From Bacteroidota bacterium (GTDB lineage Bacteria > Bacteroidota > Ignavibacteria > Kapaibacteriales > Kapaibacteriaceae): a DNA stretch of 64,000 nucleotides. Each line of letters starts with the position of its first letter. The first letter of the stretch is position 1. A program made the position numbers and the translations under genes. The DNA lies in contig JBDKEN010000001.1 in the NCBI GenBank assembly GCA_039795225.1, positions 85,610 to 149,609 of the forward strand, given 5' to 3'. A model generated the notes under the pieces. It saw nothing but the letters and a program-made list of their open reading frames with translations. It made no database searches and was not told where the DNA came from. Below, in pieces: positions 16,794 through 47,593 of the stretch.

Positions 16794-16828
16794 GGTTTCA
16801 GGTTTCAGGTTTCGGGTTTCAGGTTTCA
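16794..16828. repeat. Tandem heptamer array: 5 units, GGTTTCA x4 with one GGTTTCG variant at position 3
   Basis: Units at 16794, 16801, 16808 (GGTTTCG), 16815 and 16822. The last unit contains the TGA stop (TCA on the + strand, 16826-16828) of the OmpA-like gene. Confidence 0.9.
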
Positions 16829-21393: not shown

Positions 21394-23537
21394 CGTATTC
21401 CTTCATCAAGCATGAGCTTTGTGCGGACGTTGGTTCCGAAACGCGCGACGATCACATATGGCTGATGGTGGTTCTGTGGCAAATAGTCGGCACCGACACC
21501 CACACATCGTCCATCCAGGAGGTACCATACCACTTCATCGGCACTCTGCAATTGTTCTCGGGTGAGGCCCTCGACTTCGTCTACCGACGAAATCGGCAGA
21601 GGCCATGGTTCCTTCAGTCGTAGTACCCTTCCATCTGCTGTGCCCACAATCATCGACTCTGTATCGGAATGCACCGATACAAAAACAACGGGTGCCCCTC
21701 CTGTTTCAAGGGTCTTCACACGCAAGCCCGATGCAGCTTCGACGATCACGACCGTACCGTCGTCCTGTCCTACCGAAAAGTGCTTGGCAGACTTTGAACA
21801 GGCAATGCGATTCCCAAGGAATCCATCGATGAAGGGCTTACCGATTGCCGGAAGAACGTTGACTTCTTGTAACGTCTCGGCATCTATGATCACGGCGTCG
21901 ATAGCATCTGCACTTGATAGTCCATACTGCATGAGCACCAATACATCAGACTCTCCAACACGCGAAGCGGGCACAAGGATATCGATCACGGATGTAGGAA
22001 CAGACTTGGTCGCTAGAATCTGTCCGGTTAGCCCGTCCAGGACTCGTAGCGTACTGTCGGCGCAGCTTGTAACAATGCGCCCATTGCGTGTGGAGGTTGC
22101 CACCCAAGGGATACAGGTAGCAATAGCGGACGAGGTAAGGGGCTCGGGGTTGCCAGATGTAAGAGCGAATGCACTATCACTTGTTAGGACGATTATTCGG
22201 TCAGTCGTCCTGCTCGCAACAACTGAGGTAGCTCTTCGAGAGAACGAGGTATCCATGGATTTCGATTGAACGTCATACCGGCGCAAACGTCGTATACCAT
22301 CATTGGCAACGGGTGTGAAGTACAACGACTGCATGGCGTTATCAAACACCATGGAAGCCGGCGTAGCAAAGCCCCAAGGCTGGTTCCCAACCGTATGAGT
22401 AACAGAACCATTTGCAACATCGATAAGACGAATCCGATCCGAGCTTGACGACGCGGTAGCTATCATTTTTCCATCGATAGACCAAGCCGCACGGCGTAGG
22501 TACCCAGTCATGCCCTCGAGGTCGAACATGAACCTATCCGTCGTGAGATCCCATACCTGGACATCGCTACCCTGTGTGGCCACGTAGAGACGTTTTGCAG
22601 GCTGGTCGACGGCGAGGGCCGAAACCTGGCGTCCAAACTCGATGATCGTATCAGCATCGGAGCGCCCGTCCGTGTACCGACGCAGTCCGGCAAAGAGCAC
22701 GCCCGCCGTAATCGTTCGAGTTGCGTCTTCAAGAACAACGAACTCAGGTCCACCAGCGATGCCATAGTCTACATCACGTCTACTCTGAACGGCGCCTGTG
22801 GCTGCATCCACGGTAAGGATTGCATTCGATGCAGCCATCCGGATGGTAGTGGATGTGGCATAGGCCGCAGCATAAATAGGAGAACTTCCTCCAGAGCCGG
22901 GTGCAGCACCGTCAACCACCGCACGTATGGCTAGTCCAGGAACCCCTACAATTCGGGCAGGGTTCGGCACTGATGGCGAGTCCTTTCCACCTGCCCGCGA
23001 CGTTGTGATTGTCATGGAAGCACCGTCTGGGTTCACGGCAATGGAGCGGACAGGCGACCCAAGGCGCATCGTGTCGAGAATTGCTCGATTGTTCAGATCC
23101 CACCTTCGCACCACACCCGCATCGTCACCTACGGCAACCCAATCTCCATTTGGAGAGCAAGCAATATCATTTACTTGAAGGGTGTGCTTTCCCAGAGTAA
23201 AGAGTAGTCGCCCTGATTCGATCGACCAACACCTTACCCAACCGTCGGCATCACCCGTGATCACGATCGCTTCATCCGGCGTTATAGCCATGGAGCGTCC
23301 ACCCAGGAATCGCGTCGTGATCAATGTGAGCGTACTACTCTTTGTGGCTAGGTCCCAAACACGCACAGAACCATCAAAGGAGCCAACCAGCAGACGTCCG
23401 TTTGATAGCGGCACTAAGTCGTAAGCAGGACGAGTGTTTCCGCCACGTTCCCAAAGCACATCAGGTATCTGCGATTGTGCCGTAAGCAAACAAGAGACAC
23501 AGCAGAACGCAGCCAGCAATTGAACGGTGCTAAACAT
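21390..23537 (-). CDS. Secreted WD40-repeat beta-propeller protein
   Basis: ATG at 23537 gives an MFSTVQLLAAFCCVSCLLTAQSQ signal peptide. WD40-like repeats include DGSVRVWDL, DGWVRCWSI and AGVVRRWDL. The stop overlaps the next gene's start (ATGA at 21390-21393). Confidence 0.8.
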   Translation of the reverse strand: MFSTVQLLAAFCCVSCLLTAQSQIPDVLWERGGNTRPAYDLVPLSNGRLLVGSFDGSVRVWDLATKSSTLTLITTRFLGGRSMAITPDEAIVITGDADGWVRCWSIESGRLLFTLGKHTLQVNDIACSPNGDWVAVGDDAGVVRRWDLNNRAILDTMRLGSPVRSIAVNPDGASMTITTSRAGGKDSPSVPNPARIVGVPGLAIRAVVDGAAPGSGGSSPIYAAAYATSTTIRMAASNAILTVDAATGAVQSRRDVDYGIAGGPEFVVLEDATRTITAGVLFAGLRRYTDGRSDADTIIEFGRQVSALAVDQPAKRLYVATQGSDVQVWDLTTDRFMFDLEGMTGYLRRAAWSIDGKMIATASSSSDRIRLIDVANGSVTHTVGNQPWGFATPASMVFDNAMQSLYFTPVANDGIRRLRRYDVQSKSMDTSFSRRATSVVASRTTDRIIVLTSDSAFALTSGNPEPLTSSAIATCIPWVATSTRNGRIVTSCADSTLRVLDGLTGQILATKSVPTSVIDILVPASRVGESDVLVLMQYGLSSADAIDAVIIDAETLQEVNVLPAIGKPFIDGFLGNRIACSKSAKHFSVGQDDGTVVIVEAASGLRVKTLETGGAPVVFVSVHSDTESMIVGTADGRVLRLKEPWPLPISSVDEVEGLTREQLQSADEVVWYLLDGRCVGVGADYLPQNHHQPYVIVARFGTNVRTKLMLDEGIR

Positions 23538-23663
23538 GACAAAATACCCCTGTGTATTGACGATTAGATGTTCACACCCGTGTCCAACTGCAATGTCACA
23601 TCCGTGGCTGGATGGCCAGTGAAATGTGACGTTTGTCTGCATTCAGGGGTGTATACTTGCTAC

Positions 23664-24221
23664 GTGCTTACCCCACCAGCGCATATTGTCCCAACAGAAT
23701 TGCTTTGTGCAGTAAACAACCCTGCAACGAGAGATGCCTCTTTCGCAGAATTCTACGATGCGCTCAGCAGACACGTGTATATGTACGCACTGCGCATGAC
23801 ATCAAACGAGTTAGATGCTTCTGACGTAACGCAGGAGACGTTCATCCGCGTACATGCACACCTCGTAAGGGGCAACACCATCGTTGATCCACTCCCCTTC
23901 TGCCTGATGATCGCACGTCAGCGCGTGATCAACATGCACCGCGACCGCAAGGTCACGGTGGAGCTCGATGAACAGCATAGCACTGTCGACCCCTATATCG
24001 ACATTGAGCGCGAGGACATCCGCGAACACGTCGAGCATGCCGTTGCGCGTCTGCCGGTGCTTCTGCGCGATGCGTTTGTCTTGAGATACTACGATGGTCT
24101 TTCGTATGAAACGATTGCAACGATGATCTCAGAATCAGCCGGCACCGTGCGTATGCGCGTGCATCGCGCCAAGGCCATCCTTCGTCAGTCGCTGGCGCAT
24201 CTCGTCAGGGAGAAAAGCTGA
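23664..24221 (+). CDS. ECF-type RNA polymerase sigma-70 family factor
   Basis: Region 2 (DASDVTQETFIRVHAHL) and a region 4 HTH (LSYETIATMISESAGTVRMRVHRAKAIL) are present. The start is uncertain. The track ATG at 23568 adds a Cys-rich ~30-aa extension, whereas GTG 23664 or TTG 23700 fit the family length better. Confidence 0.85.
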   Translation: MLTPPAHIVPTELLCAVNNPATRDASFAEFYDALSRHVYMYALRMTSNELDASDVTQETFIRVHAHLVRGNTIVDPLPFCLMIARQRVINMHRDRKVTVELDEQHSTVDPYIDIEREDIREHVEHAVARLPVLLRDAFVLRYYDGLSYETIATMISESAGTVRMRVHRAKAILRQSLAHLVREKS

Positions 24222-25264
24222 TGCGCGCCAGTGCTCACATCCTTATCCAGCGATATCTCGACGGAGAGCTCTCCGAGCTCGAGCTCCAGGCCTTTCTCCA
24301 GGACCTTTCGCAGAGCCCAGAGCTTGCATCAATGCTGGAGCAAGAAGTCAACATCGAAGCAGCGATCATCAACGATGCGTATTCCATAGAGCCCCCTGCC
24401 GAGCTACGTGCTGCCGTGTTGCAGTCGCTTCCTGACGTAGGTTCTTCCTGGACACTCAGCGTGGTCGGTCAGATGGCGTTGAGTATTGCCATGGGCGGAG
24501 TGTTCCTGCTTACATCGCTTGTCAGTATTGGTACAAACAGCATGCGACGGGTAGATGCTCCCGCGTCGAAGGTTGCACCCGTAATTGCCACTTCGGCCTC
24601 GTCCCGTGCGGTCGAACATTCGAGGTCCGCACCAGGCAGAGTTCTCAGCATCGATGCATCAATTCCTCGATCATTCTCATCACGTGACGTTGTTGCCGAC
24701 GTCGAGAGTGCTGATGTCTTGGTTGAGCCGACACGACACGTGCACATGCCGTTTGAGACTCTGCAACGTTCATGGGGTGAGCAGCACTCTGATCGATTCC
24801 TCGGCCTGGGTGGTGCATCCGTCTCGTCGCTTCCGACAGGTCTGTTCGGTGGGATGGTGGGAACCAGCATGGTCTCGCTGCGATACGAGCTCGACCTTCT
24901 CGAAGATTCACAGGTCTTCGTCGAGGCAGGGGGCTTGCAGCAGCCGCGCACGTCAACAGCATACGTCAACGGTGCAACGGCTTCCGTCATCTCCAGTGGC
25001 ATATCGCCATTTGTGAGCATTGGCATTGCCGGAAGTGTCCTCGATCTAGACATGCTCGGCCGGCCCATCAGCGGCGCAGCGTCGATCGGCGTCACGAGCG
25101 CCGGCCCCATTGCTATAGCGGATGTATCGGCTCCGATCATTGACCTCGGCCACACCACGCTTGACGTGGGCGTGCGCTTCTCCGCGCGGTTCGATCTTGG
25201 TTCACGTAGCACCAGCTCCGTCAGCGCAGCCCCTTTCATCCGTGTGGGCATTCCTCTGAGGTGA
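24221..25264 (+). CDS. Putative membrane anti-sigma factor
   Basis: The start overlaps the sigma gene stop (TGATG). The N-terminal LIQRYLDGELSELELQAFLQDL looks like an anti-sigma helix. One TM helix (VVGQMALSIAMGGVFLLTSLVSI) precedes a ~240-aa beta-rich extracytoplasmic domain of unknown family. Confidence 0.65.
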   Translation: MRASAHILIQRYLDGELSELELQAFLQDLSQSPELASMLEQEVNIEAAIINDAYSIEPPAELRAAVLQSLPDVGSSWTLSVVGQMALSIAMGGVFLLTSLVSIGTNSMRRVDAPASKVAPVIATSASSRAVEHSRSAPGRVLSIDASIPRSFSSRDVVADVESADVLVEPTRHVHMPFETLQRSWGEQHSDRFLGLGGASVSSLPTGLFGGMVGTSMVSLRYELDLLEDSQVFVEAGGLQQPRTSTAYVNGATASVISSGISPFVSIGIAGSVLDLDMLGRPISGAASIGVTSAGPIAIADVSAPIIDLGHTTLDVGVRFSARFDLGSRSTSSVSAAPFIRVGIPLR

Positions 25265-25336
25265 GAGAGCGCTTCACGCAGGTTTGAGGTGTGGGGTTTG
25301 GGGTGTGGGGTCATTTGTCATTCGTCATTGGTCACT
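25265..25336. repeat. Composite array element, copy 1: leader GAGCGCTTCACGCA plus 8 in-phase heptamers
   Basis: The leader is at 25267-25280, 2 nt after the TGA stop of the anti-sigma gene. The units from 25281 are GGTTTGA, GGTGTGG, GGTTTGG, GGTGTGG, GGTCATT, TGTCATT, CGTCATT, GGTCACT. Confidence 0.85.
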
Positions 25337-25364
25337 TTTCATGATATACATTTCTTTCGTTGTA

Positions 25365-25372
25365 TATCTTTG
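25365..25372 (+). promoter_or_regulatory. Candidate -7 promoter box TATCTTTG upstream of vapB
   Basis: Perfect TAnnTTTG, 24 nt before the vapB ATG and 28 nt after the array. Confidence 0.4.
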
Positions 25373-25396
25373 TGCTGAAATTTCAGGACCGACACT

Positions 25397-25627
25397 ATGC
25401 GCGTATCAAAATGGGGTAATAGTCTGGCCGTGCGACTTCCGGCCAGCATTGTCGAGGAGTTGAACCTTAAGGAGGGCGACGAGATCGAACTCGTAAGCTC
25501 CGATATGGAATCATTTATCCTTCATCGGTACGACAATCCCGCGCAGCTTCTCGAGCGCATCCGACGCTTCAGGGGGCGACTCCCCAAGGGATACAACTTC
25601 GATCGGGAGGGGGCTCATGAGCGCTAA
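25397..25627 (+). CDS. vapB: AbrB/MazE/SpoVT-family antitoxin (VapB-type)
   Basis: 76 aa. MRVSKWGNSLAVRLPASIVEEL is the classical swapped-hairpin AbrB-type antitoxin N-terminus. Overlaps the PIN gene by 11 nt. Confidence 0.85.
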   Translation: MRVSKWGNSLAVRLPASIVEELNLKEGDEIELVSSDMESFILHRYDNPAQLLERIRRFRGRLPKGYNFDREGAHER

Positions 25628-26021
25628 GACGTTCATCGACACGAACGTCCTGCTCTACCTCCTCTCGCATGATGCGCGCAAAGCGTCGTCCGTTGAGCGT
25701 CTGCTCCTGCAGCAGCCCACCATCAGCGTACAGGTGTTGAATGAGATCGTTGCGGTTGCCACGAGGAAGCTCCGCATGCCGATGCCCGAGATACTCGAGT
25801 TCTGTCAGGTCATCCGCCGTCTCTGCAACGTCGAGCCAATCACGCCGGACCATCATGATCTTGCTCTATCGATCATGCAACGATTCAACTACAGCATATA
25901 CGATGCTCTCATCATTGCCTCTGCCCTTCTCGCAGACTGTCGAAGGCTCTCTACGGAAGACCTCCAGCATGGCCAGGTCATTTTGAAGCAGCTGAGAGTA
26001 GAAAATCCTTTTCGAGTGTGA
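25617..26021 (+). CDS. vapC: PIN-domain toxin VapC
   Basis: 134 aa with the acidic PIN residues in FIDTNV, LNE and YDALI. Small size and antitoxin pairing fit VapC. Confidence 0.9.
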   Translation: MSAKTFIDTNVLLYLLSHDARKASSVERLLLQQPTISVQVLNEIVAVATRKLRMPMPEILEFCQVIRRLCNVEPITPDHHDLALSIMQRFNYSIYDALIIASALLADCRRLSTEDLQHGQVILKQLRVENPFRV

Positions 26022-30506: not shown

Positions 30507-32672
30507 TTAGCGGAGCGGTGTGACGAGCTCGATCTGAACCGTACGAGAATACGAACGCCCTTCGGGAGTATCATTCTCAAAGATCAATCGATCAGAACCA
30601 ACAGGTTCGAGGGTGACGCGATCATCGGACAGGCCCAGCACCTTCTGCACTTCAAGACAGCGCTTGCGTGCAAGAGTTCGATTGTACTCCGGATTACCGG
30701 TCTTATCTGCATAGCCAACGATGCGTACACGCGAGTCCGGCTGAATACGAGCTTTAACCCGTTCCATCGTGCGCTGATTCGCAGGATTCAACTGCGCGCT
30801 GTTAAAGTCGAACACGATGAGCGAGTATCTCTCAACAATCTTACCTTCCTCTTGTCGAGCTCGAATGGTCTGAAGTGTGACGTACTCTACCGCAACAGTG
30901 TCGAAGGCTTCTACGGCAGCCCCTTGATCGTTCCGAACTCGAATGCGCGCAATGATAGGGTCATCCTTCCGCGGACGGGCTGTGGCCTTTGCGGGATCCC
31001 ATGTAACCTGCTCGGGGGGGCCATCGCCCTTCGCCGTGTAGAGAAGTCGTCCTGCCTGCTCAAGGACCAACGTCCAGCTGGCAATATCATCTTCCTCTCG
31101 CAACGCCGATCCAATTCCAATCGTCGGTGGAGTGACGATCAAATCCTTGTCACGGAATTCAATTGGCTCCAGGATTGCAGGTGTTGATGCTGTGATTTCG
31201 ACGCGTTGATTTTCAGCGCGACCCTCGGGCGTGGCTGAATTGGCTGGCTGCTCGGGAAGCAAGCCACCTCTTGTTTTGATACGGACCGGATCGATACTCC
31301 ACACCGATGTGAGATATGTTTTGACAGATTCGGCGCGATTGCGCGACAACTCGCGGCTGCCCGCCTCGGGTCCCACATTGCTACCGTATCCAGTGATGAC
31401 GATGGTCGCCGTTGGATCAACTATCAACCGTTGAGCAATGATGTTCAACAGATTCGCATACACACCTATCTGGTCGCGTGAGAGCATCGATGTCGAAAAG
31501 GTGGATACATCCGTCGGCGTGAGCAGCCGTTGCTTCGTCTTTGTGAGATCGGCACTGCCCTCCGGAAAGAAGAGCTGCGGAAGCATCGGATAATTTTCGA
31601 TGACATCAAGTTCCTCGACACGCATCCGTGTGAGATCACGCGCCGTGTCTGCCGAGCCCCCTGCCATGATCTGCACACGTAAGCCCGGATCAAATGGAGC
31701 AGGCAGTTCACGTCGATACCGTTCGTTAATCGTCGTCGTAACGTATACCGTATCACCTTCTCGGCGTGTAGCATCATCAGAACTCGTCTCGACGAGCTCT
31801 ATCCGCGGCTCGTTGATGCCTCGTCGCACAAGCACGGAGGTATCACGCCGATACGTTGTGTCGCGAATCAGGATGGCATCAGTTGGACGGTACATACCGA
31901 AGCGAACACTGACACCGAACTGAATGGCATGCACCGACCAAGGGACATCGGAAACGGTGCTAAGGGGCAATGCATAGCGCAGTTCCGGCGAAACCGTGTA
32001 GGAATTTGTCCGTACCAGATCGTAGCGCAGTCCTGCAATGGCATGAAACTGCTGCACGACAGGGAGAGGGATCGGTCCTTCCGACTGATTCCGTATCGTC
32101 GACCCATTCAGGAAAACGTACCCTTCCGGTTCGACGAGCGTTTCCTTCTGCATGAATGATGTTCCCCCCATGATACCGATGCGTATTCCCGCCTGGATTG
32201 TCAGCCGGTCCAACGGAGAGGTCAACACGGAGGGCTCAATCGTAAACAATGGGATCGACGATGTGAAGTCATGCCGGACAAGCACGTCGCGTCGGCGCGG
32301 AGCTGGACCCAGTCCATCCTCGAGTACCGGCTCGTTTCCGATCTTCTCTTCCCGTGTAAAATCACCCGACAGCGACGTATATCCCAGACGCGCCTCAAAC
32401 CTTAGACCATGCTTCCATGGAAACTCACCAAGCAGACCAAATGATGCGGAGGTTGAGGCACTACCGGAAAAGGAAGAACAGCACGACAGTATGCCGGGCA
32501 GTGCACCAAAGTCAACGTCGTGTATCGACTGCACACCGTGGATGTACCCACCCAGACGGTATTTCAGGATCATGGTCTGTCGCGTACTGTCATCCACGTA
32601 CATCTCCTGCGATTGTCCAGCGACGAACGTCAGGAACAGAACCAACATCATGATCGAGACACTGCGATTCAT
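30507..32672 (-). CDS. Outer-membrane protein: N-terminal beta-strand-rich domain plus two OmpA_C-like domains (paralog of 16826-18775)
   Basis: ATG at 32672 (MNRSVSIMMLVLFLTFVAGQSQ) lies 4 nt after the giant gene's stop. Motifs are shared with the other copy: NQRVEITAS vs NRRVEITSS, VERYSLIVFDFNSAQL vs IERFELVVFPFRSAEL, VGYADKTGNPEYNRTLARKR vs VEGYTDIIGTTEDNDRISLERA. Confidence 0.85.
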   Translation of the reverse strand: MNRSVSIMMLVLFLTFVAGQSQEMYVDDSTRQTMILKYRLGGYIHGVQSIHDVDFGALPGILSCCSSFSGSASTSASFGLLGEFPWKHGLRFEARLGYTSLSGDFTREEKIGNEPVLEDGLGPAPRRRDVLVRHDFTSSIPLFTIEPSVLTSPLDRLTIQAGIRIGIMGGTSFMQKETLVEPEGYVFLNGSTIRNQSEGPIPLPVVQQFHAIAGLRYDLVRTNSYTVSPELRYALPLSTVSDVPWSVHAIQFGVSVRFGMYRPTDAILIRDTTYRRDTSVLVRRGINEPRIELVETSSDDATRREGDTVYVTTTINERYRRELPAPFDPGLRVQIMAGGSADTARDLTRMRVEELDVIENYPMLPQLFFPEGSADLTKTKQRLLTPTDVSTFSTSMLSRDQIGVYANLLNIIAQRLIVDPTATIVITGYGSNVGPEAGSRELSRNRAESVKTYLTSVWSIDPVRIKTRGGLLPEQPANSATPEGRAENQRVEITASTPAILEPIEFRDKDLIVTPPTIGIGSALREEDDIASWTLVLEQAGRLLYTAKGDGPPEQVTWDPAKATARPRKDDPIIARIRVRNDQGAAVEAFDTVAVEYVTLQTIRARQEEGKIVERYSLIVFDFNSAQLNPANQRTMERVKARIQPDSRVRIVGYADKTGNPEYNRTLARKRCLEVQKVLGLSDDRVTLEPVGSDRLIFENDTPEGRSYSRTVQIELVTPLR

Positions 32673-32676
32673 TGAG

Positions 32677-35600
32677 TTACCGCACGATCGAAAGTGGAAG
32701 GACACGTCGACGAGAAGGCGTTTCCAGAATGAGCTGATAGACGCCGGAGACAAGAGCTTCAAAGGGCAGAGCATGCTGGCGAACAGGATTCGTTGAATCA
32801 TGTTCCCATTGCGCGATGCTCACCAATCCCCCATCAAGACTTAGCAGGATCAACCGATGTATGCCCCGCTCATAGGTTTCAGTGGTGATCTGACTCCAAC
32901 TTCCAACAGGATTAGGATGGACCTCTACACGCAGGCGGCCAGCGCGCGTGATCAGGCGCTTGCCCCCAGCTTCACACAACGTCGTTACGAGCGATCCATC
33001 ATTGGTTGTGAATCGCGCCGTTACATTCGGAGCACGCATCGTTGCACGCTCGAACTCGAGTGTCGTCGAGTCAACCGGTCCGATGGTTACATCGCCAATA
33101 AGTTCGGCAATCACGCTTCCACCGGAAGCAATTGACGCATTGTTGATGTCGAGATCAACAACCGTGAAGCCCCCTACGGTTTCATGCCGATGGATTACCC
33201 CACCGACCACCTCTCGCAGGGCAAACATCGACGAGACGTAGCGGATCCGCATTGAGAAGGACACACTGTCAAGCTGCGTTGCCTCGCCCGAGACGGCCGC
33301 CGAGATCGGGATTCGTGCATCACGTTGCGTTGGCAGCTCAACAAGATCCGGCAACGATGCAATGACGTCGACGATCACAACCCCTGTTCCGCTGAGCGCG
33401 AGCACTCGCGTCTCGGGGCATGGCTGATCAATCGTGATGATGACACCATCTGAATATGCATCCTGACGCTTGGGAGAAAAGTCAACGATGACCTCAAACG
33501 TCCCACCCGGAGGAATCGTCATTGGCGTTGTGGGATTTGAACGGACCCGAAAAGCACTCGTGGGCCCACTTGCTAGCGAAACGGAACTTATGGCAAGGGG
33601 CTCAGTACCCATATTGCTGAACACAAGACTCTGCGTACTGATCGATGTAATGCTTACACGTCCAAACACGATACTGGAAGGGTTCAGCGATAACGAGGTC
33701 CGACGCTCGCCTTTGACCTCGCAGATAACCGGCACCAGCACATCATTGATCTTTGCAAGAATTGTCACATCGGCGATCTTGATGCCATCAGCTGCAGCCG
33801 ATGGATCGAACTCCACGCGAAGCACACGCTGCTCACCCGGAGCAAGCGTCTGCGCACGAACCACTTCAGGGTTCAGCAAACGAAATGCAGCTGCATCAGC
33901 TCCGCTGATTCCTACCACGTCGATGAGCTGAATCGGGAACGCACCACTGTTGACGTAAATGACACTGTCGATGCGCTTTGCACACTCGCTGACGATCCCA
34001 AAATTGAGTTTTTGGCTTGCGCTCAGCTGATCGATTCCACCACGAGCTCGAACGATTACCGAGATCGTATCGACGCATGGCTCATCAATGGCCAAGAGCA
34101 CTGTGTCCTGCACATCTTCCTCTGCCCCGCAGAGATACGTATATGTAATGTCCCGCGTCTGGCCTGGGTCGATTCGTATCTGCGAAGGATTTACTCCAAC
34201 ACGTCCACCGCCGTTGACTAGGGTAGCAACGATATGGATCGCAAGCAGCGTCGGGTTGGTATAGGAAAACGACACGCTGCGGGACGAACCAACGCGCACT
34301 GACCCCAAATCCACAACGCGTGGTCCTAGCAGCTCGACCGATGTTCGCTGACCATTGAGGTTGACGCTGATAGTGCCGATCGTCTGATCATCTGTTCGAA
34401 CAGCGAAGACGGCCGACTTGACACCATCGGGACCTTGACTTCCGCGAAACTGAATGGCATACGTCAACGAGGCACCGGGCCGCAAGGACGTGTCTTGTTG
34501 TGCACCACCGGACCAGGTGAACGACGAGGCGTTGACGCCATTGATAACCGGTGGATACAGCAGTGTGAATGTTGTCTTGCCGTTATTCGTAATCGTTACT
34601 TGCTGTTGGGCACTGTCACATGCAGCCACTGGTGAATACGTTAGCGATGTGGACGAGAGGCCGATGTCTGAGGTGATACCAGTTCCTGCGAGAAGAATCT
34701 CCGCACTATCAGAACAGCTCACCAGCGACGAATCCGCAAGAATCTGCATCTGCGTAGCTGAGCGTCCAACAACAGTGGGCGTGAAGGCAACGACGATAAT
34801 GATAGATGAGCCAGGCGATATTCTTGCTGGCAGAGGGGGCGTGATAGAGACGATGCTGAACGGGGCCGGAAGCACTGGACGTGTTGTAATGTCGAGGTCA
34901 CTCGTTCCCGTGTTTCGCAATTCGAAGACCGATTCGCGCCGATCGCCAAGTCGAACATCACCGAACTGCCCATTGCCAATGACATTTATCTGCGACTCTA
35001 CGCCGATATGGCGAAGAAAGATCGTATCGAGTTCATCACATTCCCGAAAGCGGACAAGGATGGGCACGACCTGCGCTCCGACGCGCTTCGCTGAGAAGGT
35101 AAGGGCTATCTGTGTGAAGCTGATAGAATCCCGGAGTGTGATTGGTACCCCTCCGGTGACACTCATCACAGCTGGACTTGCGGAGGTAAACGAGACAATC
35201 GTAAGCACCGGTCGTCCCGTCTTCCTGATCGTAACTTGCTCGGCAAGTGGACGTCCGATACACACGCGACCAATGTCTAATGTGTCGCGTCGCAGTCCGC
35301 GCCAGAAGTAGTTGACCATCGTCGGCGTTGCATCGGCAGTGAGCTTTACGATACGCGTGTACGTATCGTTGTAATTGATGCGCAACTCTGAACGCTGAAT
35401 ACCCGTCTGGCCGGGCTGAACTTGGTACGAGACGATAAATGTGGCTGTTTCGAAAGGGGCCAGCACAAGTGGAAAAGTCGGCTGCTGATCAATAGCAAAT
35501 CCAGCCAAGGGTCCAATCTGCGAACCGGTCAATCGCACAGGATCCGGTCCAGGATTTCGAACAATGATCGTGTCGCGCACGGCACCACCCGGACACTGTG

Positions 35601-37443
35601 CCTGACCCATGTTTCGGAGGGTGTCAACCTCGAGCACAGGGACAAGCACGCGACGAACAACATTCCATGCTGACTGCGAGAAGACCACGCCGGGCTGCTG
35701 GCGGAAGGCTGCTGAAGAGGGATTCGGGACCTCTGCGGCAGCAACAACGTACATGATGCTGTCACCGCTCACCCATGGTATTGATGCGGTCCATTGATCC
35801 GCCGGCGTAAAGATTTGTGATGGACCGACCACTTGCGTCCACTGTCCAGATGTTGTGCGTGCCCAGACGAAGATTCCATCGGCACCCTTCGTCCCACGAA
35901 CGGTAACAGTTGTTTGTGAGCGATCGAGGAACTCCATCGAAACGCCTGCCCATGCTCCTGCAACACCGCGCACTGGTCCATCAACTCGCACACGCCCCTT
36001 GCCTCCGGTGAGATGTCGTGTTGCAGCAGAACCAGCAGCATCAAATCCACCATCAACGTCAACAACAACATCCTCTGGGAATGACAGCCGACTGCGTGCA
36101 CCGGCGATGACTCCACCGCCAGATCCACAGCCGCCCTGTAAGTCCTGCCGAGTAGGAATTCCTCCTCGTGCAACGAGGCGGATGTTCGACAGCTCGCGTC
36201 CGTGAATGCTCATCGCACCACCACCACCACCACCGCCCGCAGCGATTGATCGCGTTACATCAGGATTGCCCCCTGCCCCACCGCTGCCACCGGCAAGAGG
36301 CACGAGCTGGACGTTGCCAACCTCGATGCCACCGTTGCTAAATGAAGATTCCGTTTCACCAGGCGTCGAGTAGCCACCAGCCCCGCCGCGTCGGCCCTCC
36401 TGTGAGCCCGATCCTCCGCCTGCTCCGCCAAGGGTCTGGCAGGTGGTACGTTCTCCACAACCTGTGCCGCTTGATCCAAACGGATGACCTGTTCCTCCAC
36501 CGGCATTTTCGTGCGACGTTGTCGACTCGCCGCCACGTGTGCCATTGAGCGATGGAGAGCCCGTCGTGTTGGTTGACGATTGAGGAAGTGCAGCACCTGT
36601 GCCGACACCTGGTGTGCGCTTGGTGCGTGCAAAATTGTAGCCGCCCGGGCCGCCGCCCGTGAATCCATCGCCACCATCCGTTCCTGCCTGCCCACTAAAA
36701 TTGAGATTCACATAGGCACCAGCTCCACCGCCACCGCCGGGTCCGCCCCGAATTCCTGCCGCACTCACAGAGATCTCTGTGGCGATCTGATCCGCAACAC
36801 GTGGTGCACGAATAGGGCCAATCGCGTACAGCGTCAATGGAAGGTAACCTTGGTTACCATTTGTGCTCTGGTCACAATCATTCGTGGAAACCTGGTAAAG
36901 CGCCGATGCAGCCAGGACGAGCGAGTCAACAATCATCGCCCCTCGACGTGATCGGCGTCCGAGTGCCCCCTGACCGAAAATCCTATCAGACAAGGATGCA
37001 ACCGAGCCGAGTGGCCAGGGCTTGACGATGTAAAAGGTGTCGATCGGAGACGCAACACCATTAACAACTACCCTGATGGGAATCCGGAACTCGGACCGCA
37101 GCTTTGTCCAGTCATGATCATTCGGCTGCACCTCGGGGTTCACAAAGGCAACCGTTGAAATGAGTCGACCAGACCAGCTGACATGAAGTGGACCGAATGT
37201 GAGCTTTGACATATCCGACGGTCGAGCACACTCAACACGTACGGCATCGCCCGGATTGTTGAACGACGTACCGTCACTGCCGAAGCTTCCTGTGGCCGTT
37301 GCTGGCGCGACAATCTCGAGCACGCTGCCCATGCCAGGAGCACCGATGTCAGGCAAGATGTACGACACCACCGGCTGCGCATCGAGATGCACGGCCACGA
37401 CCCAGAAAAGAATGCCCACGGCGATGATGGCACGACGCATCAT
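32677..37443 (-). CDS. Giant secreted surface protein (1588 aa): IPT-like N-terminus, Gly-rich segment, multiple Ig-like (ASH / choice-of-anchor-D-like) repeats, cohesin-like module, T9SS-like CTD
   Basis: Uninterrupted ORF with signal peptide MMRRAIIAVGILFWVVAVHLDAQ. A Gly-rich block spans aa ~230-485. Repeated FG.V..G......F.N.G...L.I-type modules occur, e.g. GQFGDVRLGDRRESVFELRNTGTSDLDI and VDLGSVRVGSSRSVSFSYTN. The C-terminal ..LVSGVYQLILETPSRRRVLPLSIVR resembles a T9SS CTD. The start overlaps the RidA stop (ATGA). Confidence 0.85.
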   Translation of the reverse strand: MMRRAIIAVGILFWVVAVHLDAQPVVSYILPDIGAPGMGSVLEIVAPATATGSFGSDGTSFNNPGDAVRVECARPSDMSKLTFGPLHVSWSGRLISTVAFVNPEVQPNDHDWTKLRSEFRIPIRVVVNGVASPIDTFYIVKPWPLGSVASLSDRIFGQGALGRRSRRGAMIVDSLVLAASALYQVSTNDCDQSTNGNQGYLPLTLYAIGPIRAPRVADQIATEISVSAAGIRGGPGGGGGAGAYVNLNFSGQAGTDGGDGFTGGGPGGYNFARTKRTPGVGTGAALPQSSTNTTGSPSLNGTRGGESTTSHENAGGGTGHPFGSSGTGCGERTTCQTLGGAGGGSGSQEGRRGGAGGYSTPGETESSFSNGGIEVGNVQLVPLAGGSGGAGGNPDVTRSIAAGGGGGGGAMSIHGRELSNIRLVARGGIPTRQDLQGGCGSGGGVIAGARSRLSFPEDVVVDVDGGFDAAGSAATRHLTGGKGRVRVDGPVRGVAGAWAGVSMEFLDRSQTTVTVRGTKGADGIFVWARTTSGQWTQVVGPSQIFTPADQWTASIPWVSGDSIMYVVAAAEVPNPSSAAFRQQPGVVFSQSAWNVVRRVLVPVLEVDTLRNMGQAQCPGGAVRDTIIVRNPGPDPVRLTGSQIGPLAGFAIDQQPTFPLVLAPFETATFIVSYQVQPGQTGIQRSELRINYNDTYTRIVKLTADATPTMVNYFWRGLRRDTLDIGRVCIGRPLAEQVTIRKTGRPVLTIVSFTSASPAVMSVTGGVPITLRDSISFTQIALTFSAKRVGAQVVPILVRFRECDELDTIFLRHIGVESQINVIGNGQFGDVRLGDRRESVFELRNTGTSDLDITTRPVLPAPFSIVSITPPLPARISPGSSIIIVVAFTPTVVGRSATQMQILADSSLVSCSDSAEILLAGTGITSDIGLSSTSLTYSPVAACDSAQQQVTITNNGKTTFTLLYPPVINGVNASSFTWSGGAQQDTSLRPGASLTYAIQFRGSQGPDGVKSAVFAVRTDDQTIGTISVNLNGQRTSVELLGPRVVDLGSVRVGSSRSVSFSYTNPTLLAIHIVATLVNGGGRVGVNPSQIRIDPGQTRDITYTYLCGAEEDVQDTVLLAIDEPCVDTISVIVRARGGIDQLSASQKLNFGIVSECAKRIDSVIYVNSGAFPIQLIDVVGISGADAAAFRLLNPEVVRAQTLAPGEQRVLRVEFDPSAAADGIKIADVTILAKINDVLVPVICEVKGERRTSLSLNPSSIVFGRVSITSISTQSLVFSNMGTEPLAISSVSLASGPTSAFRVRSNPTTPMTIPPGGTFEVIVDFSPKRQDAYSDGVIITIDQPCPETRVLALSGTGVVIVDVIASLPDLVELPTQRDARIPISAAVSGEATQLDSVSFSMRIRYVSSMFALREVVGGVIHRHETVGGFTVVDLDINNASIASGGSVIAELIGDVTIGPVDSTTLEFERATMRAPNVTARFTTNDGSLVTTLCEAGGKRLITRAGRLRVEVHPNPVGSWSQITTETYERGIHRLILLSLDGGLVSIAQWEHDSTNPVRQHALPFEALVSGVYQLILETPSRRRVLPLSIVR

Positions 37444-40290: not shown

Positions 40291-41253
40291 ATGCGCATAT
40301 CCGTCATCGGCACTGGACACCTCGGAGCGATTCATACCAAGCTTCTCACACAGCACGAGGATGTAACACTCGCCGGCATCGTTGATCCCAACCCCGAGCG
40401 CGGTCGTGAGATCGCCACGCTATATAACGCGCAGTGGTTTCCGACGATTCAGGCCATGCCCGATGTCGATGCCGTCATCATTGCCTCGCCAACGTCCACG
40501 CACTTCGATGTTGTAACCGAATGCCTGGCAAGGGGCTTCCATTGCTTTGTGGAAAAGCCGGCAACAGCTACCTATGACGAAGCGCAACAACTTCTTGCTC
40601 AGCTTGAAGGGAGCAACCGCATTGTGCAGGTCGGACATGTCGAACGATTCAATCCTGCGGTACGTGCGCTGGCGAGTATGTCGATTGAACCGCTCTTTAT
40701 CGAGATACACCGATTAGCCCCTTTCAAGCCCCGGGCAATTGATGTCAGCGTGATACACGATCTGATGATTCATGACATCGACCTTTTGCTCTGGCTCACG
40801 TCATCAACCGTCACAGATATTCAGGCAACGGGTGTGAGTGTTCTTACGCAGACCACTGATATCTGCAATGCGCGACTCACCTTTGCCAACGGCTGTGTTG
40901 CGAACGTAACCGCTTCGCGGATTACGGCAACACCGATGCGGAAACTGCGCATCTTTCAGCGCGATCGGTATGTCTCGTTGGATCTGGCGGCCGGAGCAGC
41001 AGAAATGTATCGTCTGCTGGACAGTTCCTCGATTGATGTCGCCCACCAGACACCCTTGGGAATGGTCACAACCCAACACGGAGATAACGTCATCGTGCAC
41101 GAAACACCGGAGATTTCTCCAACAAATGCCATATTGGACGAGCAGCGGTCGTTCATCGACAGTATTCGGTCGAATACGCCCGTAGCGGTTCGTCTGCATG
41201 AGGGAGCAGAGGCCATCCGCATCGCTGAATGGATTGGGAGTCTCATCTCGTAG
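40291..41253 (+). CDS. Gfo/Idh/MocA-family oxidoreductase
   Basis: ATG at 40291 gives the Rossmann motif MRISVIGTGHLGAIH. The EKP motif (CFVEKPA) is present. Confidence 0.85.
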   Translation: MRISVIGTGHLGAIHTKLLTQHEDVTLAGIVDPNPERGREIATLYNAQWFPTIQAMPDVDAVIIASPTSTHFDVVTECLARGFHCFVEKPATATYDEAQQLLAQLEGSNRIVQVGHVERFNPAVRALASMSIEPLFIEIHRLAPFKPRAIDVSVIHDLMIHDIDLLLWLTSSTVTDIQATGVSVLTQTTDICNARLTFANGCVANVTASRITATPMRKLRIFQRDRYVSLDLAAGAAEMYRLLDSSSIDVAHQTPLGMVTTQHGDNVIVHETPEISPTNAILDEQRSFIDSIRSNTPVAVRLHEGAEAIRIAEWIGSLIS

Positions 41254-41269
41254 CACGAACACACCGCCT

Positions 41270-42730
41270 ATGCGTCAACGTCGCCTCGGTACCCTCATTG
41301 GAATCCTGCTCTGGCTTTTCCTGCAGATAGAAGCACGGTCACAGACCGAGATCAGTGATTACGGCAGATTAGGTCATGCAGCCTTTCTGACGACTACCGT
41401 TTCCGATTATCAGTGCATCGGAATCAACCCGGCAAACCTAGGCTTCTCCCCAGAGCTGGACATTTCCGGAATATCGACACCAATCGCTGCGGGCATGACG
41501 TTCTCACGTCGCCACTGGTCACTCGGAATTGGCCAAGTTGGCATCTCAGCCCGGAGCGACGCGCTCTCAAAGCCTCGTCTGCTGGATTTGCTCTACCAGC
41601 GCGGTTCGGCAACGGCCTTCACGCCACAAGATCAAATTCAAGCTGCACAGGAATTCGCCGATCGCGGCGTGCGCTTCAACATCGACATCCTTGTCTTTGG
41701 CGCTTCCTATCAATCAAAGCGCTTTGGCGGTTTTGGGGTGACTGTTCGTGACCGATTCAATGGCGCATTCAAGCTCAACGCCGACGCCTCGAAGATCATC
41801 TTTCAGGGTCGACGGGCAGACTACTTCGATTCATCGTATACGAACTGGCGCGGAGACACCATTGGTGTTGCACGTCAGCCGCAACTGTTTTCGCAGTTGT
41901 TCGATGGCACACGCCTTGCACTTTCGTGGACCCGGGAATTCAACGTGTCGATTGGAATTCCATTGTGGATTGCAGCTGATCAGCGGCTGTGTGTTGGTAT
42001 GACCGGAAAATACCTGCAGCCGTTTGCCTATCTCGAAGCCAACGCCGGTGGCGGGGCCTTTACTGCGTACAGTGCTCTGAGTCCATGGTTCAACATCAAC
42101 TACGGGAATGCTGTAACACCATCACGCATAGCAGGTACCGCACTTCAACCTGTCGGATTAGGATTCGGTGTCGATCTCGGCATGACATATCAGAGCAAGT
42201 CGATCTCTGTTGCCGTGTCGATCATCGACATCGGAACGATCACGTACAATGGTAATGTCTTTTCTGCTGGAGATACGGTCGTCAATGGACTCGGTACGAC
42301 TGGCTTCGACAGTTACAACTTGTTTGAAGAGGCACCCAAGATTACTGGCGAGGGAAAATACTTTGTCTGGTCAGGCCTGCAGAGCACAGCTGCACCTCTC
42401 CCTACGCGCATGCGCGCCGGTGTGTCGTACTCGGTCGATCCACGACTGACCTTCGGCTTCGATTGCACTGTTCCCATGGGCAGTTCTGGCATCAACCCCG
42501 AAAGCATGATCCTGTCCACAGGGCTATCGGTAAAACCATATCAATGGCTGACGCTTGGAACGGGGCTCGGCACTGGCGATGGAATGGATATCTTCGTGCC
42601 GGGCAGTATCCTGATTAGCATGGGTAAACTGTGGGAGTTCGGCGTGTCAACCTTCGACCTTTCATCCCTGTTCACAGACCGTCTGCCAATCGTCTCGACA
42701 ACCGTCGGATTCGTGCGCCTTCGATTCTAA
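41270..42730 (+). CDS. Putative outer-membrane beta-barrel protein (hypothetical)
   Basis: ATG at 41270 gives a signal peptide (..LLWLFLQIEARSQ). 486 aa, beta-rich with Gly/aromatic alternation. The C-terminal ..VGFVRLRF ends in Phe, an OMP signature. Confidence 0.6.
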   Translation: MRQRRLGTLIGILLWLFLQIEARSQTEISDYGRLGHAAFLTTTVSDYQCIGINPANLGFSPELDISGISTPIAAGMTFSRRHWSLGIGQVGISARSDALSKPRLLDLLYQRGSATAFTPQDQIQAAQEFADRGVRFNIDILVFGASYQSKRFGGFGVTVRDRFNGAFKLNADASKIIFQGRRADYFDSSYTNWRGDTIGVARQPQLFSQLFDGTRLALSWTREFNVSIGIPLWIAADQRLCVGMTGKYLQPFAYLEANAGGGAFTAYSALSPWFNINYGNAVTPSRIAGTALQPVGLGFGVDLGMTYQSKSISVAVSIIDIGTITYNGNVFSAGDTVVNGLGTTGFDSYNLFEEAPKITGEGKYFVWSGLQSTAAPLPTRMRAGVSYSVDPRLTFGFDCTVPMGSSGINPESMILSTGLSVKPYQWLTLGTGLGTGDGMDIFVPGSILISMGKLWEFGVSTFDLSSLFTDRLPIVSTTVGFVRLRF

Positions 42731-46414: not shown

Positions 46415-47593
46415 ATGCCGATTCACCAGATATTGCTGGTTGCTCTTGTCGCAGCAACGGCCTGCGCTCAGCCGCCACAGGTATGGTTTGGTGGACCCTT
46501 TCGCGTTGGTACTACGCCCATCGAGACGCTACCGGAGGTCTCCGGCATTGTCAGTTCGATAGCCAATTCCAGCGTCCTATGGATGCACAATGATTCTGGC
46601 GATGAGCCGCGGATCTTTGCCGTAACGCTTCCAGGACGTGTCGTGGCTCAAGTGCGCCTTGAGGGGGCCAAGCATCTTGATTGGGAAGATATTGCCAAGG
46701 GGCCTGGACCTGTGGCTGGTGCAGCCTACCTTTATATCGCGGACATCGGCGACAATGGAGCTCGTCGCAGCACGGTCGTGATTTACCGAATCAGGGAGCC
46801 GCGTATTGATACGACAATGCGCGATCAACAACTGGTAATACCGGCCGATTCGATTGAGCGATTCACCGTAGCCTATGCAGACGGTCCGCGCGATGCAGAG
46901 GCATTGCTTGTTGACCCTGCAACAGGCGACATTGTCATCGTGACCAAGCGTGAGCAACGCTGCCGCGTGTATGTTGCACCTGCGCCACAGAGTACAACCG
47001 GCATCGACACCCTCAGATATCATGGTGACATCCCACTTCAACTTGTAACAGGGGGCGATGTGTCGCCGGATGGATCGACGATCCTCCTCAAAACATATCT
47101 CCATGTTCGTCTCTGGAAACGTCAACCCGGACAGTCCCTGGCATCAGCCATCACCGGTGCCGGGAAGCCCCTTCCATACATGCCTGAACGTCAGGGTGAG
47201 GCTATCGGCATGACACCTGCAGGTGATGGCTTCTACACAACATCTGAATGTGAACACGGAGGTTCAGCCGCCGCTATCATGTTCTACCCGCAGGCAGAGA
47301 CGGCATCGGCAGCAGAGCAACTTCGCGATGTGCGGCTTCCGTCGATTTCTGCCAATCGACTCAATCCAACCAGTAAGACTGTTCGTATTCGGTACACCGT
47401 TCCAGACGTTGAGAGGATTTCGATTACGCTCCGCAACGCAGCGATGTTCAACGTCATGACGATCGCGGAAGATTCTGCTGAAGCAGGACTGCAGGAGCGT
47501 GACATTGACATCTCGAAGCTCCCGCCTGGTAGCTATGCCGTGGTGTTGGAAACCACTTCCCAACGTGTCTCGACACTCCTTGAGGTTCGATGA
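46415..47593 (+). CDS. Hypothetical secreted protein with a T9SS-like CTD
   Basis: 392 aa with signal peptide MPIHQILLVALVAATACAQ. Motifs seen are ..WMHNDSGDE.., DWEDIA and YLYIADIGDNG. The C-terminal ..LPPGSYAVVLETTSQRVSTLLEVR resembles a T9SS CTD. Confidence 0.65.
   Translation: MPIHQILLVALVAATACAQPPQVWFGGPFRVGTTPIETLPEVSGIVSSIANSSVLWMHNDSGDEPRIFAVTLPGRVVAQVRLEGAKHLDWEDIAKGPGPVAGAAYLYIADIGDNGARRSTVVIYRIREPRIDTTMRDQQLVIPADSIERFTVAYADGPRDAEALLVDPATGDIVIVTKREQRCRVYVAPAPQSTTGIDTLRYHGDIPLQLVTGGDVSPDGSTILLKTYLHVRLWKRQPGQSLASAITGAGKPLPYMPERQGEAIGMTPAGDGFYTTSECEHGGSAAAIMFYPQAETASAAEQLRDVRLPSISANRLNPTSKTVRIRYTVPDVERISITLRNAAMFNVMTIAEDSAEAGLQERDIDISKLPPGSYAVVLETTSQRVSTLLEVR

Follow-up and report, generated by a model that had tools for sequence, protein, structure and literature searches.

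The window analysed here is a 64,000-nt stretch of DNA from an uncultured member of the Kapabacteria (contig JBDKEN010000001.1 of assembly GCA_039795225.1, positions 85,610 to 149,609, forward strand) and holds two gene pairs in which a gene for a large secreted protein is directly followed by a gene for a predicted outer-membrane protein with two OmpA_C domains (Table 1). The secreted proteins end in tails resembling those of T9SS (type IX secretion system) substrates, and are referred to as cargo 1 and cargo 2; the downstream proteins are referred to as partner 1 and partner 2. In the first pair, the stop codon (TAA) of the 1588-aa open reading frame (ORF) is followed by 4 nt (ctca) and then by the ATG of the 721-aa ORF, and in the second pair an ATGA overlap joins the 873-aa ORF to the start of the 649-aa ORF. 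Both junctions had been described in a first-pass annotation of the window and were borne out by the ORF coordinates. Cargo and downstream partner are probably co-translated. All three motif pairs that had been listed as common to the two downstream proteins (including NRRVEITSS/NQRVEITAS) were found in the translations, and the shared architecture was confirmed: each has a signal peptide, an N-terminal barrel and two Pfam OmpA stretches. By BLASTP, the C-terminal halves of the two partners are 26% identical over 382 residues (E 3e-27), and the N-terminal halves (~215 residues) show weaker similarity (E 1e-09).

Table 1 Coordinates of the two cargo–partner pairs and their parts within the window
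Feature	Position (nt)	Strand	Basis
Cargo 1, 1588-aa secreted protein	32677-37443	minus	ORF call, profile matches, orthologues
Cohesin-like beta-sandwich of cargo 1, shortly before tail	33031-33372	minus	AlphaFold2 and Foldseek
Linker motif CEAGGKRL of cargo 1, Cys 99 residues from C-terminus	32953-32976	minus	coordinate check
Divergent type-A-like T9SS C-terminal domain of cargo 1 (VHPNPV ... GVYQLILETPSRR ... SIVR)	32680-32922	minus	own tail model, E 2.3e-11
Partner 1, 721-aa protein	30507-32672	minus	ORF call, Pfam, AlphaFold2, Foldseek
Outer-membrane beta-barrel of partner 1, residues 33-263, OMP_b-brl_2 type	31884-32576	minus	AlphaFold2, Foldseek, PF13568 in orthologues
Barrel loop 1 of partner 1, DFGALPGILSCCSSFSG, vicinal Cys64-Cys65, predicted outward-facing	32463-32513	minus	alignment, topology inference
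First OmpA_C domain of partner 1	31188-31589	minus	alignment to 3td3 and 6jfw
Ig-like beta-sandwich spacer between OmpA_C domains of partner 1	30879-31163	minus	AlphaFold2 strands 504-598
Second OmpA_C domain of partner 1	30513-30845	minus	Pfam, structural alignment
WD40 protein, 750 aa, first gene of second operon	21390-23642	minus	ATGA overlap with cargo 2
Cargo 2, 873-aa SBBP beta-propeller protein	18772-21393	minus	Pfam; tail model, E 1e-09
Linker motif CRIDSVGRF of cargo 2	19045-19071	minus	alignment, coordinate check
Type-A-like tail of cargo 2	18775-19011	minus	own tail model, E 1e-09
Partner 2, 649-aa paralogue, architecture as partner 1	16826-18775	minus	translation, Pfam, BLASTP
CC loop of partner 2	18632-18637	minus	coordinate check
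OmpA_C domains of partner 2	about 17483-17878 and 16829-17149	minus	Pfam

The structure of partner 1 was predicted with AlphaFold2 from an alignment of 41 homologues, giving a mean predicted local distance difference test (pLDDT) score of 84.9. The model places after the signal peptide a barrel (residues 33–263), a beta-rich linker (267–361), a first OmpA_C domain (362–495), an immunoglobulin (Ig)-like sandwich (504–598) and a second OmpA_C domain (610–720). That the beta-rich N-terminal halves of the partners are barrels, as had been suggested, is supported by the 12 long strands modelled over residues 33–263 (pLDDT about 90), by Foldseek, in which this part of partner 1 resembles the Ail and OmpA barrels (the OmpA_C domains were also returned), and by PF13568 (OMP_b-brl_2), which is matched by 20 of the 41 orthologues. 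The eight-strand OmpA_membrane model PF01389 gave no match at E<=0.1 in the partners or the orthologues. PF00691 (OmpA_C) matched two stretches in each partner, with E-values of 1.8e-23 and 2.9e-14. The second OmpA_C domain of partner 1 keeps the canonical Asp and Arg (GYAD ... ARKR), which we take to be the diaminopimelate-binding residues, as in Acinetobacter baumannii OmpA; in the first domain the Arg is kept and a Ser replaces the binding-site Asp (GYGS).

Cargo 1 consists of a signal peptide, a Gly-rich segment, choice-of-anchor-D/ASH Ig-like repeats (NF012200, seven stretches) and, last, a C-terminal cassette; in cargo 2 the SBBP repeat proposed by the first-pass annotation was recovered at 3.8e-09. 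The last 260 residues of cargo 1 were modelled with AlphaFold2 at an overall pLDDT of 68.9 (65–91 in the cohesin-like part, 77–89 in the tail). The best Foldseek match to the cohesin-like part was 2w1n, a construct of cohesin and FnIII (E 1e-4), and 2jh2 and 4ums were also matched. The tail model superposes on the mirolase C-terminal domain (CTD) 8qb1 with a template modelling (TM) score of 0.66 and a root-mean-square deviation of 3.0, yet this match came only at rank 50 in Foldseek with an E-value of 0.04.

The curated T9SS tail models (PF18962, TIGR04183) gave no match in cargo 1 or cargo 2 at E<=0.1 and E<=1. A hidden Markov model (HMM) was built from the tails of this genome itself (a 1.83-Mb assembly, 70% complete, with 1426 genes called on a simple gene map), and proteins with the tail at the extreme C-terminus were counted. 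This model returned 107 C-terminal tails, including those of cargo 1 (2.3e-11) and cargo 2 (1e-09), and PF18962 matched 81 places in the genome, 57 of them above its cut-off. The earlier description of both proteins as T9SS-tailed cargo thus holds in part: neither reaches a curated tail model, but the genome-built HMM places both tails in a family of which other members pass PF18962. Because the genome-built HMM groups them with such tails, the two predicted tails are divergent members of a genuine type-A-like family. The model for type B CTDs (PF13585) gave no match above cut-off anywhere in the genome. No tail was detected on the 750-aa WD40 protein that opens the second operon, which is not among the matches of the genome-built HMM. 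Tailed genes make up about 107 of the 1426 called genes (7.5%), which is a very large fraction given a genome size of about 2–2.6 Mb.

The partners belong to a family of at least 14 paralogues in this genome, about ten of them full-length and four barrel-only, without OmpA_C domains. Their description as a duplicated two-gene module was correct in that two paralogous pairs exist, but it was an understatement given the number of paralogues, nor do the pairs stem from recent copying of a single module. A tailed gene lies directly upstream on the same strand for 10 of the 14 family genes, compared with 5.0% of the 1426 genes (binomial P 9e-11), with gaps at the cargo–partner junctions mostly between −4 and +9 nt. 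Three of the four barrel-only paralogues show the same linkage to a tailed gene. Within the genome, the family recurs behind unrelated cargo bodies: the sole link among the ten upstream bodies is one weak match between two, and the last 230 residues of the ten cargo are related in 16 of 45 comparisons.

The window begins with the 5′ part (3-2252, minus) of a 2190-aa gene without a T9SS tail, which runs past the window start to contig C5:79526; downstream of it follow a 307-aa cohesin-like tailed protein and then one of the barrel-only paralogues (270 aa). The three-gene set (a giant ending in ..W.E.T.., a tailed protein of ~300 aa and a barrel) recurs at C2:16094-26553, where the barrel is a full-length paralogue with OmpA_C domains, and at C6:580342-585930; a related giant pair is found at C1:32689-40441.

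A linker motif of the pattern C-x(2-5)-G-x(0-3)-R-[LYMFIT], in its typical form CxxGGxRL, stands shortly before the tail in 7 of the 10 partnered cargo and in 2 of the 97 other tailed proteins of the genome (Fisher 1.6e-7). The linker Cys lies 98–100 residues from the end in 7 of the 10 partnered cargo, and is invariant in nine aligned cargo tails taken from the window and five other metagenomic loci. The partnered tails also fit PF18962 poorly, with one of the ten above the cut-off and two weak matches, against 55 of the 97 other tails above the cut-off (Fisher 0.006, rank test 0.0007). In our reading, each predicted cargo is an unrelated body joined to the same cassette, in which a cohesin-like domain is followed by a linker of the form Cys-x2-GG-x-R-L and by a type-A-like CTD that is divergent. 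Two more tailed proteins are encoded in the window, one of 392 aa (46415-47593, plus) and the start of one of 1698 aa (59632-63996, minus); neither has an adjoining family gene or the linker motif.

Homologues of the partner at 43–77% identity were found in Kapabacteria and Ignavibacteria-labelled metagenome genomes, annotated only as ‘OmpA family protein’. Six orthologous loci keep the gene order aldehyde dehydrogenase, RidA, protein of about 1590 aa and partner of about 720 aa, the cargo 1 orthologues (1579–1595 aa) being in the same position. A family-5 solute-binding lipoprotein gene that follows the first pair is kept in most of the orthologous loci and missing from one, and the orthologous cargo 1–partner 1 pair is kept at 43–71% identity even at the locus without it. 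A 30%-identical paralogue elsewhere has a start that overlaps the upstream gene for a 1447-aa WD40 protein. At one related locus (L009, 4360-8998) the cargo 1 orthologue is split into three ORFs (337, 467 and 646 aa), either by frameshifts or by assembly errors, and the partner gene is intact.

The neighbourhoods of family genes were surveyed more widely using 60 loci from 19 related genomes in 10 families of the class, with a start-trimming ORF caller, which yielded 58 family genes. A tailed neighbour lies directly upstream, on the same strand, of 23 of the 58 genes and directly downstream of 10; together with the orthologous pairs, this bears out the conservation of the pairing in other genomes. 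Of the 23 upstream cargo, 19 carry the linker motif, compared with 10 of 27 other tailed proteins at these loci (P 0.0016), and several of the latter ten are encoded shortly downstream of a family gene. A [TS]-P-[ST] turn that precedes the final tail strand was also considered as a signature and set aside, being less clean than the linker motif (11 of 22 upstream cargo and 5 of 28 other tails in relatives). The 11 genes with an N-terminus other than this barrel have no tailed gene next to them, upstream or downstream. Proteins of 790–955 aa with the same double-OmpA C-terminal half and other N-terminal domains (VWA in several) were encountered at loci L025, L049, L055, L066 and L069; since no surveyed gene of this kind adjoins a tailed one, linkage to cargo follows the barrel, not the OmpA half. 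In a survey of 81 genomes of the class, in which 13 candidates were scored per genome so that the counts are lower bounds, about 35 genomes had at least 12–20 family matches each. In a sample of the phylum, the family was found in six genomes of the same class (including this one) and in one of about 75 outside it.

A PorV-like gene is the only T9SS machinery gene found in this genome. SprA and PorU were searched for and not found, which we put down to the 70% completeness because relatives have them: SprA is present in five complete relatives, including one genome of the same genus, and each of the 12 relatives that were sampled from its genus and order has both PorU and PorV, usually side by side. 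PorP/SprF (PF11751, TIGR03519) gave no match in either partner and none in the genome at E<=1. Searches of three complete relatives, one from the genus, one from the family and one from the order, did not find it, nor did those of a further 13 genomes of the class; among other Bacteroidota, 14 of 47 have it. The possibility that the barrel is a remote PorP/SprF homologue was rejected, as hhalign gave a probability of 2.9% when a profile of 56 barrel sequences was compared with one of 23 PorP/SprF sequences. The PorE model NF052230, which has a cut-off of 600 bits, scored 25.6 bits on the partner and covered its OmpA part alone, and no Pfam match to TPR or WD40 domains was obtained in the partner.

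Based on the architecture of the partners and their linkage to tailed genes, we propose with moderate confidence that the two partners, of 721 and 649 aa, are members of a lineage-specific outer-membrane family of dedicated, cell-wall-tethered partners for one subclass of T9SS cargo. In the proposed mechanism, the cargo would cross the outer membrane through the SprA translocon, and its cassette would then be taken up by the 12-strand barrel of the partner, as SprF/PorP-like barrels do with type B cargo. The OmpA_C domains of the partner, certainly the second, would hold the complex on peptidoglycan. Cargo held in this manner would therefore be a fixed surface structure, neither released nor borne by lipopolysaccharide. 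The suggestion made in the first-pass annotation that these proteins are dedicated anchoring or export partners has gained support in silico from the barrels and the conserved adjacency; physical binding, the order of events and a need for the partner in export, retention or both are what we infer from gene linkage.

Several observations weigh against this proposal. Four of the 14 paralogues in this genome are unpaired, and with tailed proteins at about 7.5% of genes some adjacency to a tailed gene is expected by chance. In the relatives, about 40% of family genes have upstream cargo and 17% downstream cargo, with none detected for the rest, so that either the pairing is not obligatory or the ORF and tail calls miss cases; related genomes are moreover not independent, and the figures for relatives therefore describe a pattern and are not strict tests. 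Tail similarity and barrel similarity correlate only weakly (Spearman 0.35, Mantel P 0.07). Partnered tails were also rejected as a clade, since a tree of the 107 tails gives 10 changes, the same as with shuffled labels. The putative cargo subclass is defined by the linker motif and the weak model fit, not by a clade.

Other explanations for the pairing were weighed against the same data. The family could comprise general OmpA-like envelope rivets that are co-expressed with bulky surface proteins and bind no particular cargo, in keeping with the sole annotation as ‘OmpA family protein’, the many copies in relatives without a tailed neighbour, the generic OMP_b-brl_2 class of the barrel and the ordinary OmpA_C domains. 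We consider this unlikely, as it leaves unexplained why the neighbour is a tailed gene of one linker-motif subclass, why barrel-only paralogues without OmpA_C are equally linked (three of four) and why the −4 to +9 nt junctions recur from one paralogous pair to the next. Alternatively, the barrel could act as a cognate SprF-like export shuttle, required for drawing its cargo from the translocon, and not as the final anchor, the OmpA_C domains merely positioning it near the secretion machinery. In support of this, barrel-only paralogues exist, secretion of type B cargo in Flavobacterium johnsoniae depends on the SprF-like gene downstream (PMC12618676), and a search of relatives yielded no PorP/SprF. 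A barrel fixed to the wall would nevertheless be a poor candidate for a mobile shuttle, the PorE-linked sets of F. johnsoniae have been read as static complexes (PMC12618676), and PorV, the type A shuttle, is present in relatives while the tails here are type-A-like; a shuttle of this kind appears improbable to us.

The solute-binding lipoprotein gene kept after the first pair in most orthologous loci brings to mind a capture-and-uptake pair, in which the barrel would be a small channel or receptor importing what the surface protein captures. One orthologous locus lacks that gene, however, as do all the other paralogous pairs; the cargo bodies (WD40, SBBP and Ig repeats) are too varied for a shared substrate, and a 12-strand barrel that carries two wall-binding domains looks like an anchor, not a transporter. 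An importing role is thus very unlikely, and dedicated, wall-tethered partnership with the cargo is the reading that we retain.

The manner in which a partner might hold its cargo was considered from the conserved cysteines. Loop 1 of the barrel, which the even strand count and the periplasmic C-terminus predict to face outward, contains the vicinal pair Cys64 and Cys65; both are invariant in the 41 homologues, within the loop pattern F..LPG.P[NS]CC..F..G. The pair is present in 8 of the 14 paralogues of this genome, all eight adjoining cargo, and nearly every barrel in the relatives keeps at least one Cys in loop 1. Barrels of relatives without a loop Cys have a tailed neighbour in 0 of 3 cases, against 30 of 44 for the others (Fisher 0.04), and among 33 cargo–barrel pairs the barrel and linker Cys are both present in 31, both absent in one and represented by the barrel Cys alone in one. 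The mature form of a 295-aa cargo (contig C2:18161-19048) has no Cys other than the one in its linker. One could imagine from this that a disulfide between the barrel loop Cys (LPG-P-[NS]-C-C) and the cargo linker Cys fixes the cargo covalently, an idea that we hold to be doubtful. The CC pair was rejected as a marker of partnered barrels (12 of 14 versus 11 of 11 in relatives, P 1.0; some of the CC matches counted there fall in signal peptides), which weighs against such a bond. The same is true of two competing pairings, as the CC pair could form its own vicinal disulfide, and the linker Cys could instead pair with a second conserved Cys, located in cargo 1 orthologues about 148 residues upstream of it at the start of the cohesin-like domain. 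Exposure of the linker Cys cannot be read from the tail model of cargo 1, where pLDDT falls below 50 exactly over the linker motif. If it did form, the intermolecular disulfide would rivet T9SS cargo via an outer-membrane protein to peptidoglycan, and would represent a third mode of T9SS surface attachment beside lipopolysaccharide linkage and non-covalent PorP binding.

Some features of the surrounding DNA were also recorded. The block 16826-26000, which contains partner 2, cargo 2, the WD40 gene, an extracytoplasmic function (ECF) sigma/anti-sigma pair and vapBC, lies between the genes for FeoB and a Y-family polymerase. These two genes are adjacent in five related loci, with FeoA alone between them, and the block therefore looks like an insertion that moved as a unit. 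A scan of 27.8–39.7 kb for sigma-70 promoters and terminators gave counts at the level of shuffled sequence. A 510-aa predicted outer-membrane protein is encoded at 41198-42730 (plus), and its orthologues in related loci are recorded as PF18990 (DUF5723).

To our knowledge, type IX secretion is understood almost wholly from Bacteroidia. In that class, PorV receives type A cargo, which becomes linked to lipopolysaccharide, and PorP/SprF barrels hold the cargo of type B, in some cases together with PorE as a wall anchor. Here, a different barrel family fused to wall-binding domains displays the genetics of cognate pairs together with a recognisable cargo cassette, an arrangement that suggests an undescribed way of fastening T9SS-secreted proteins to the cell. 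A full-text literature search found no description of a partner of this kind for type-A-like tails, in agreement with what the first-pass annotation had stated. Should our proposal be correct, dedicated anchoring of cargo through a barrel to the wall would have arisen more than once and from different parts, the succession of cohesin-like domain, Cys linker and divergent tail would provide a sequence rule predicting wall-fixed secreted proteins, and the compact two-gene system could be tested in a tractable host.

The precedents invoked for the pairing, SprB-SprF and PorE, are real (PMC9143113, PMC12618676). The PorE-PorP-PG1035 complex of Porphyromonas gingivalis and the SprF-SprB pair have been described (PMC9143113), and F. 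johnsoniae contains five operons with a PorE homologue, a type B substrate and an SprF-like shuttle, which the authors read as static wall-anchored complexes (PMC12618676). As in these PorE-PorP/SprF systems, a T9SS cargo gene is followed here by a barrel gene, an OmpA_C module would tie the set to peptidoglycan, and many cognate pairs occur per genome with some barrels and cargo left as orphans. The parts differ: the partner barrel is not homologous to PorP/SprF (no PF11751 or TIGR03519 match; hhalign 2.9%), and barrel and wall-binding domains, separate in PorE-PorP, are fused in one chain with two OmpA_C domains. PorE is a lipoprotein with TPR, WD40 and CRD domains, whereas the partner lacks these and has a barrel at its N-terminus, and in place of type B tails the cargo carry type-A-like tails after a cohesin-like domain and a Cys linker. 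The lineages also differ, with Kapabacteria here and Bacteroidia for the PorE-PorP/SprF systems. It is because the genetic logic is shared while the parts differ that we read the family as wall-tethered partners, whether anchor or shuttle; on the sequence evidence, the pairs are best read as a putative fused, non-homologous counterpart of the PorP/SprF and PorE anchoring scheme. The order of an outer-membrane barrel and a periplasmic OmpA_C domain recalls OmpA/OprF, and the second domain keeps the binding-site Asp and Arg. Unlike OmpA/OprF, however, the partner has 12 predicted strands instead of 8 and is extended by a beta linker, a spacer of Ig-like type and another OmpA_C domain, and its family has at least 14 copies per genome and is genetically tied to secreted cargo. 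PorV, too, is an outer-membrane barrel, and it handles proteins with type A tails, much as the partners, by their genetics, would handle proteins with type-A-like ones; but PorV is single-copy, FadL-like, of 14 strands, without a wall-binding domain, and serves all type A cargo. Since the PorV gene stands next to porU in relatives, the partner family would add to PorV and not replace it.

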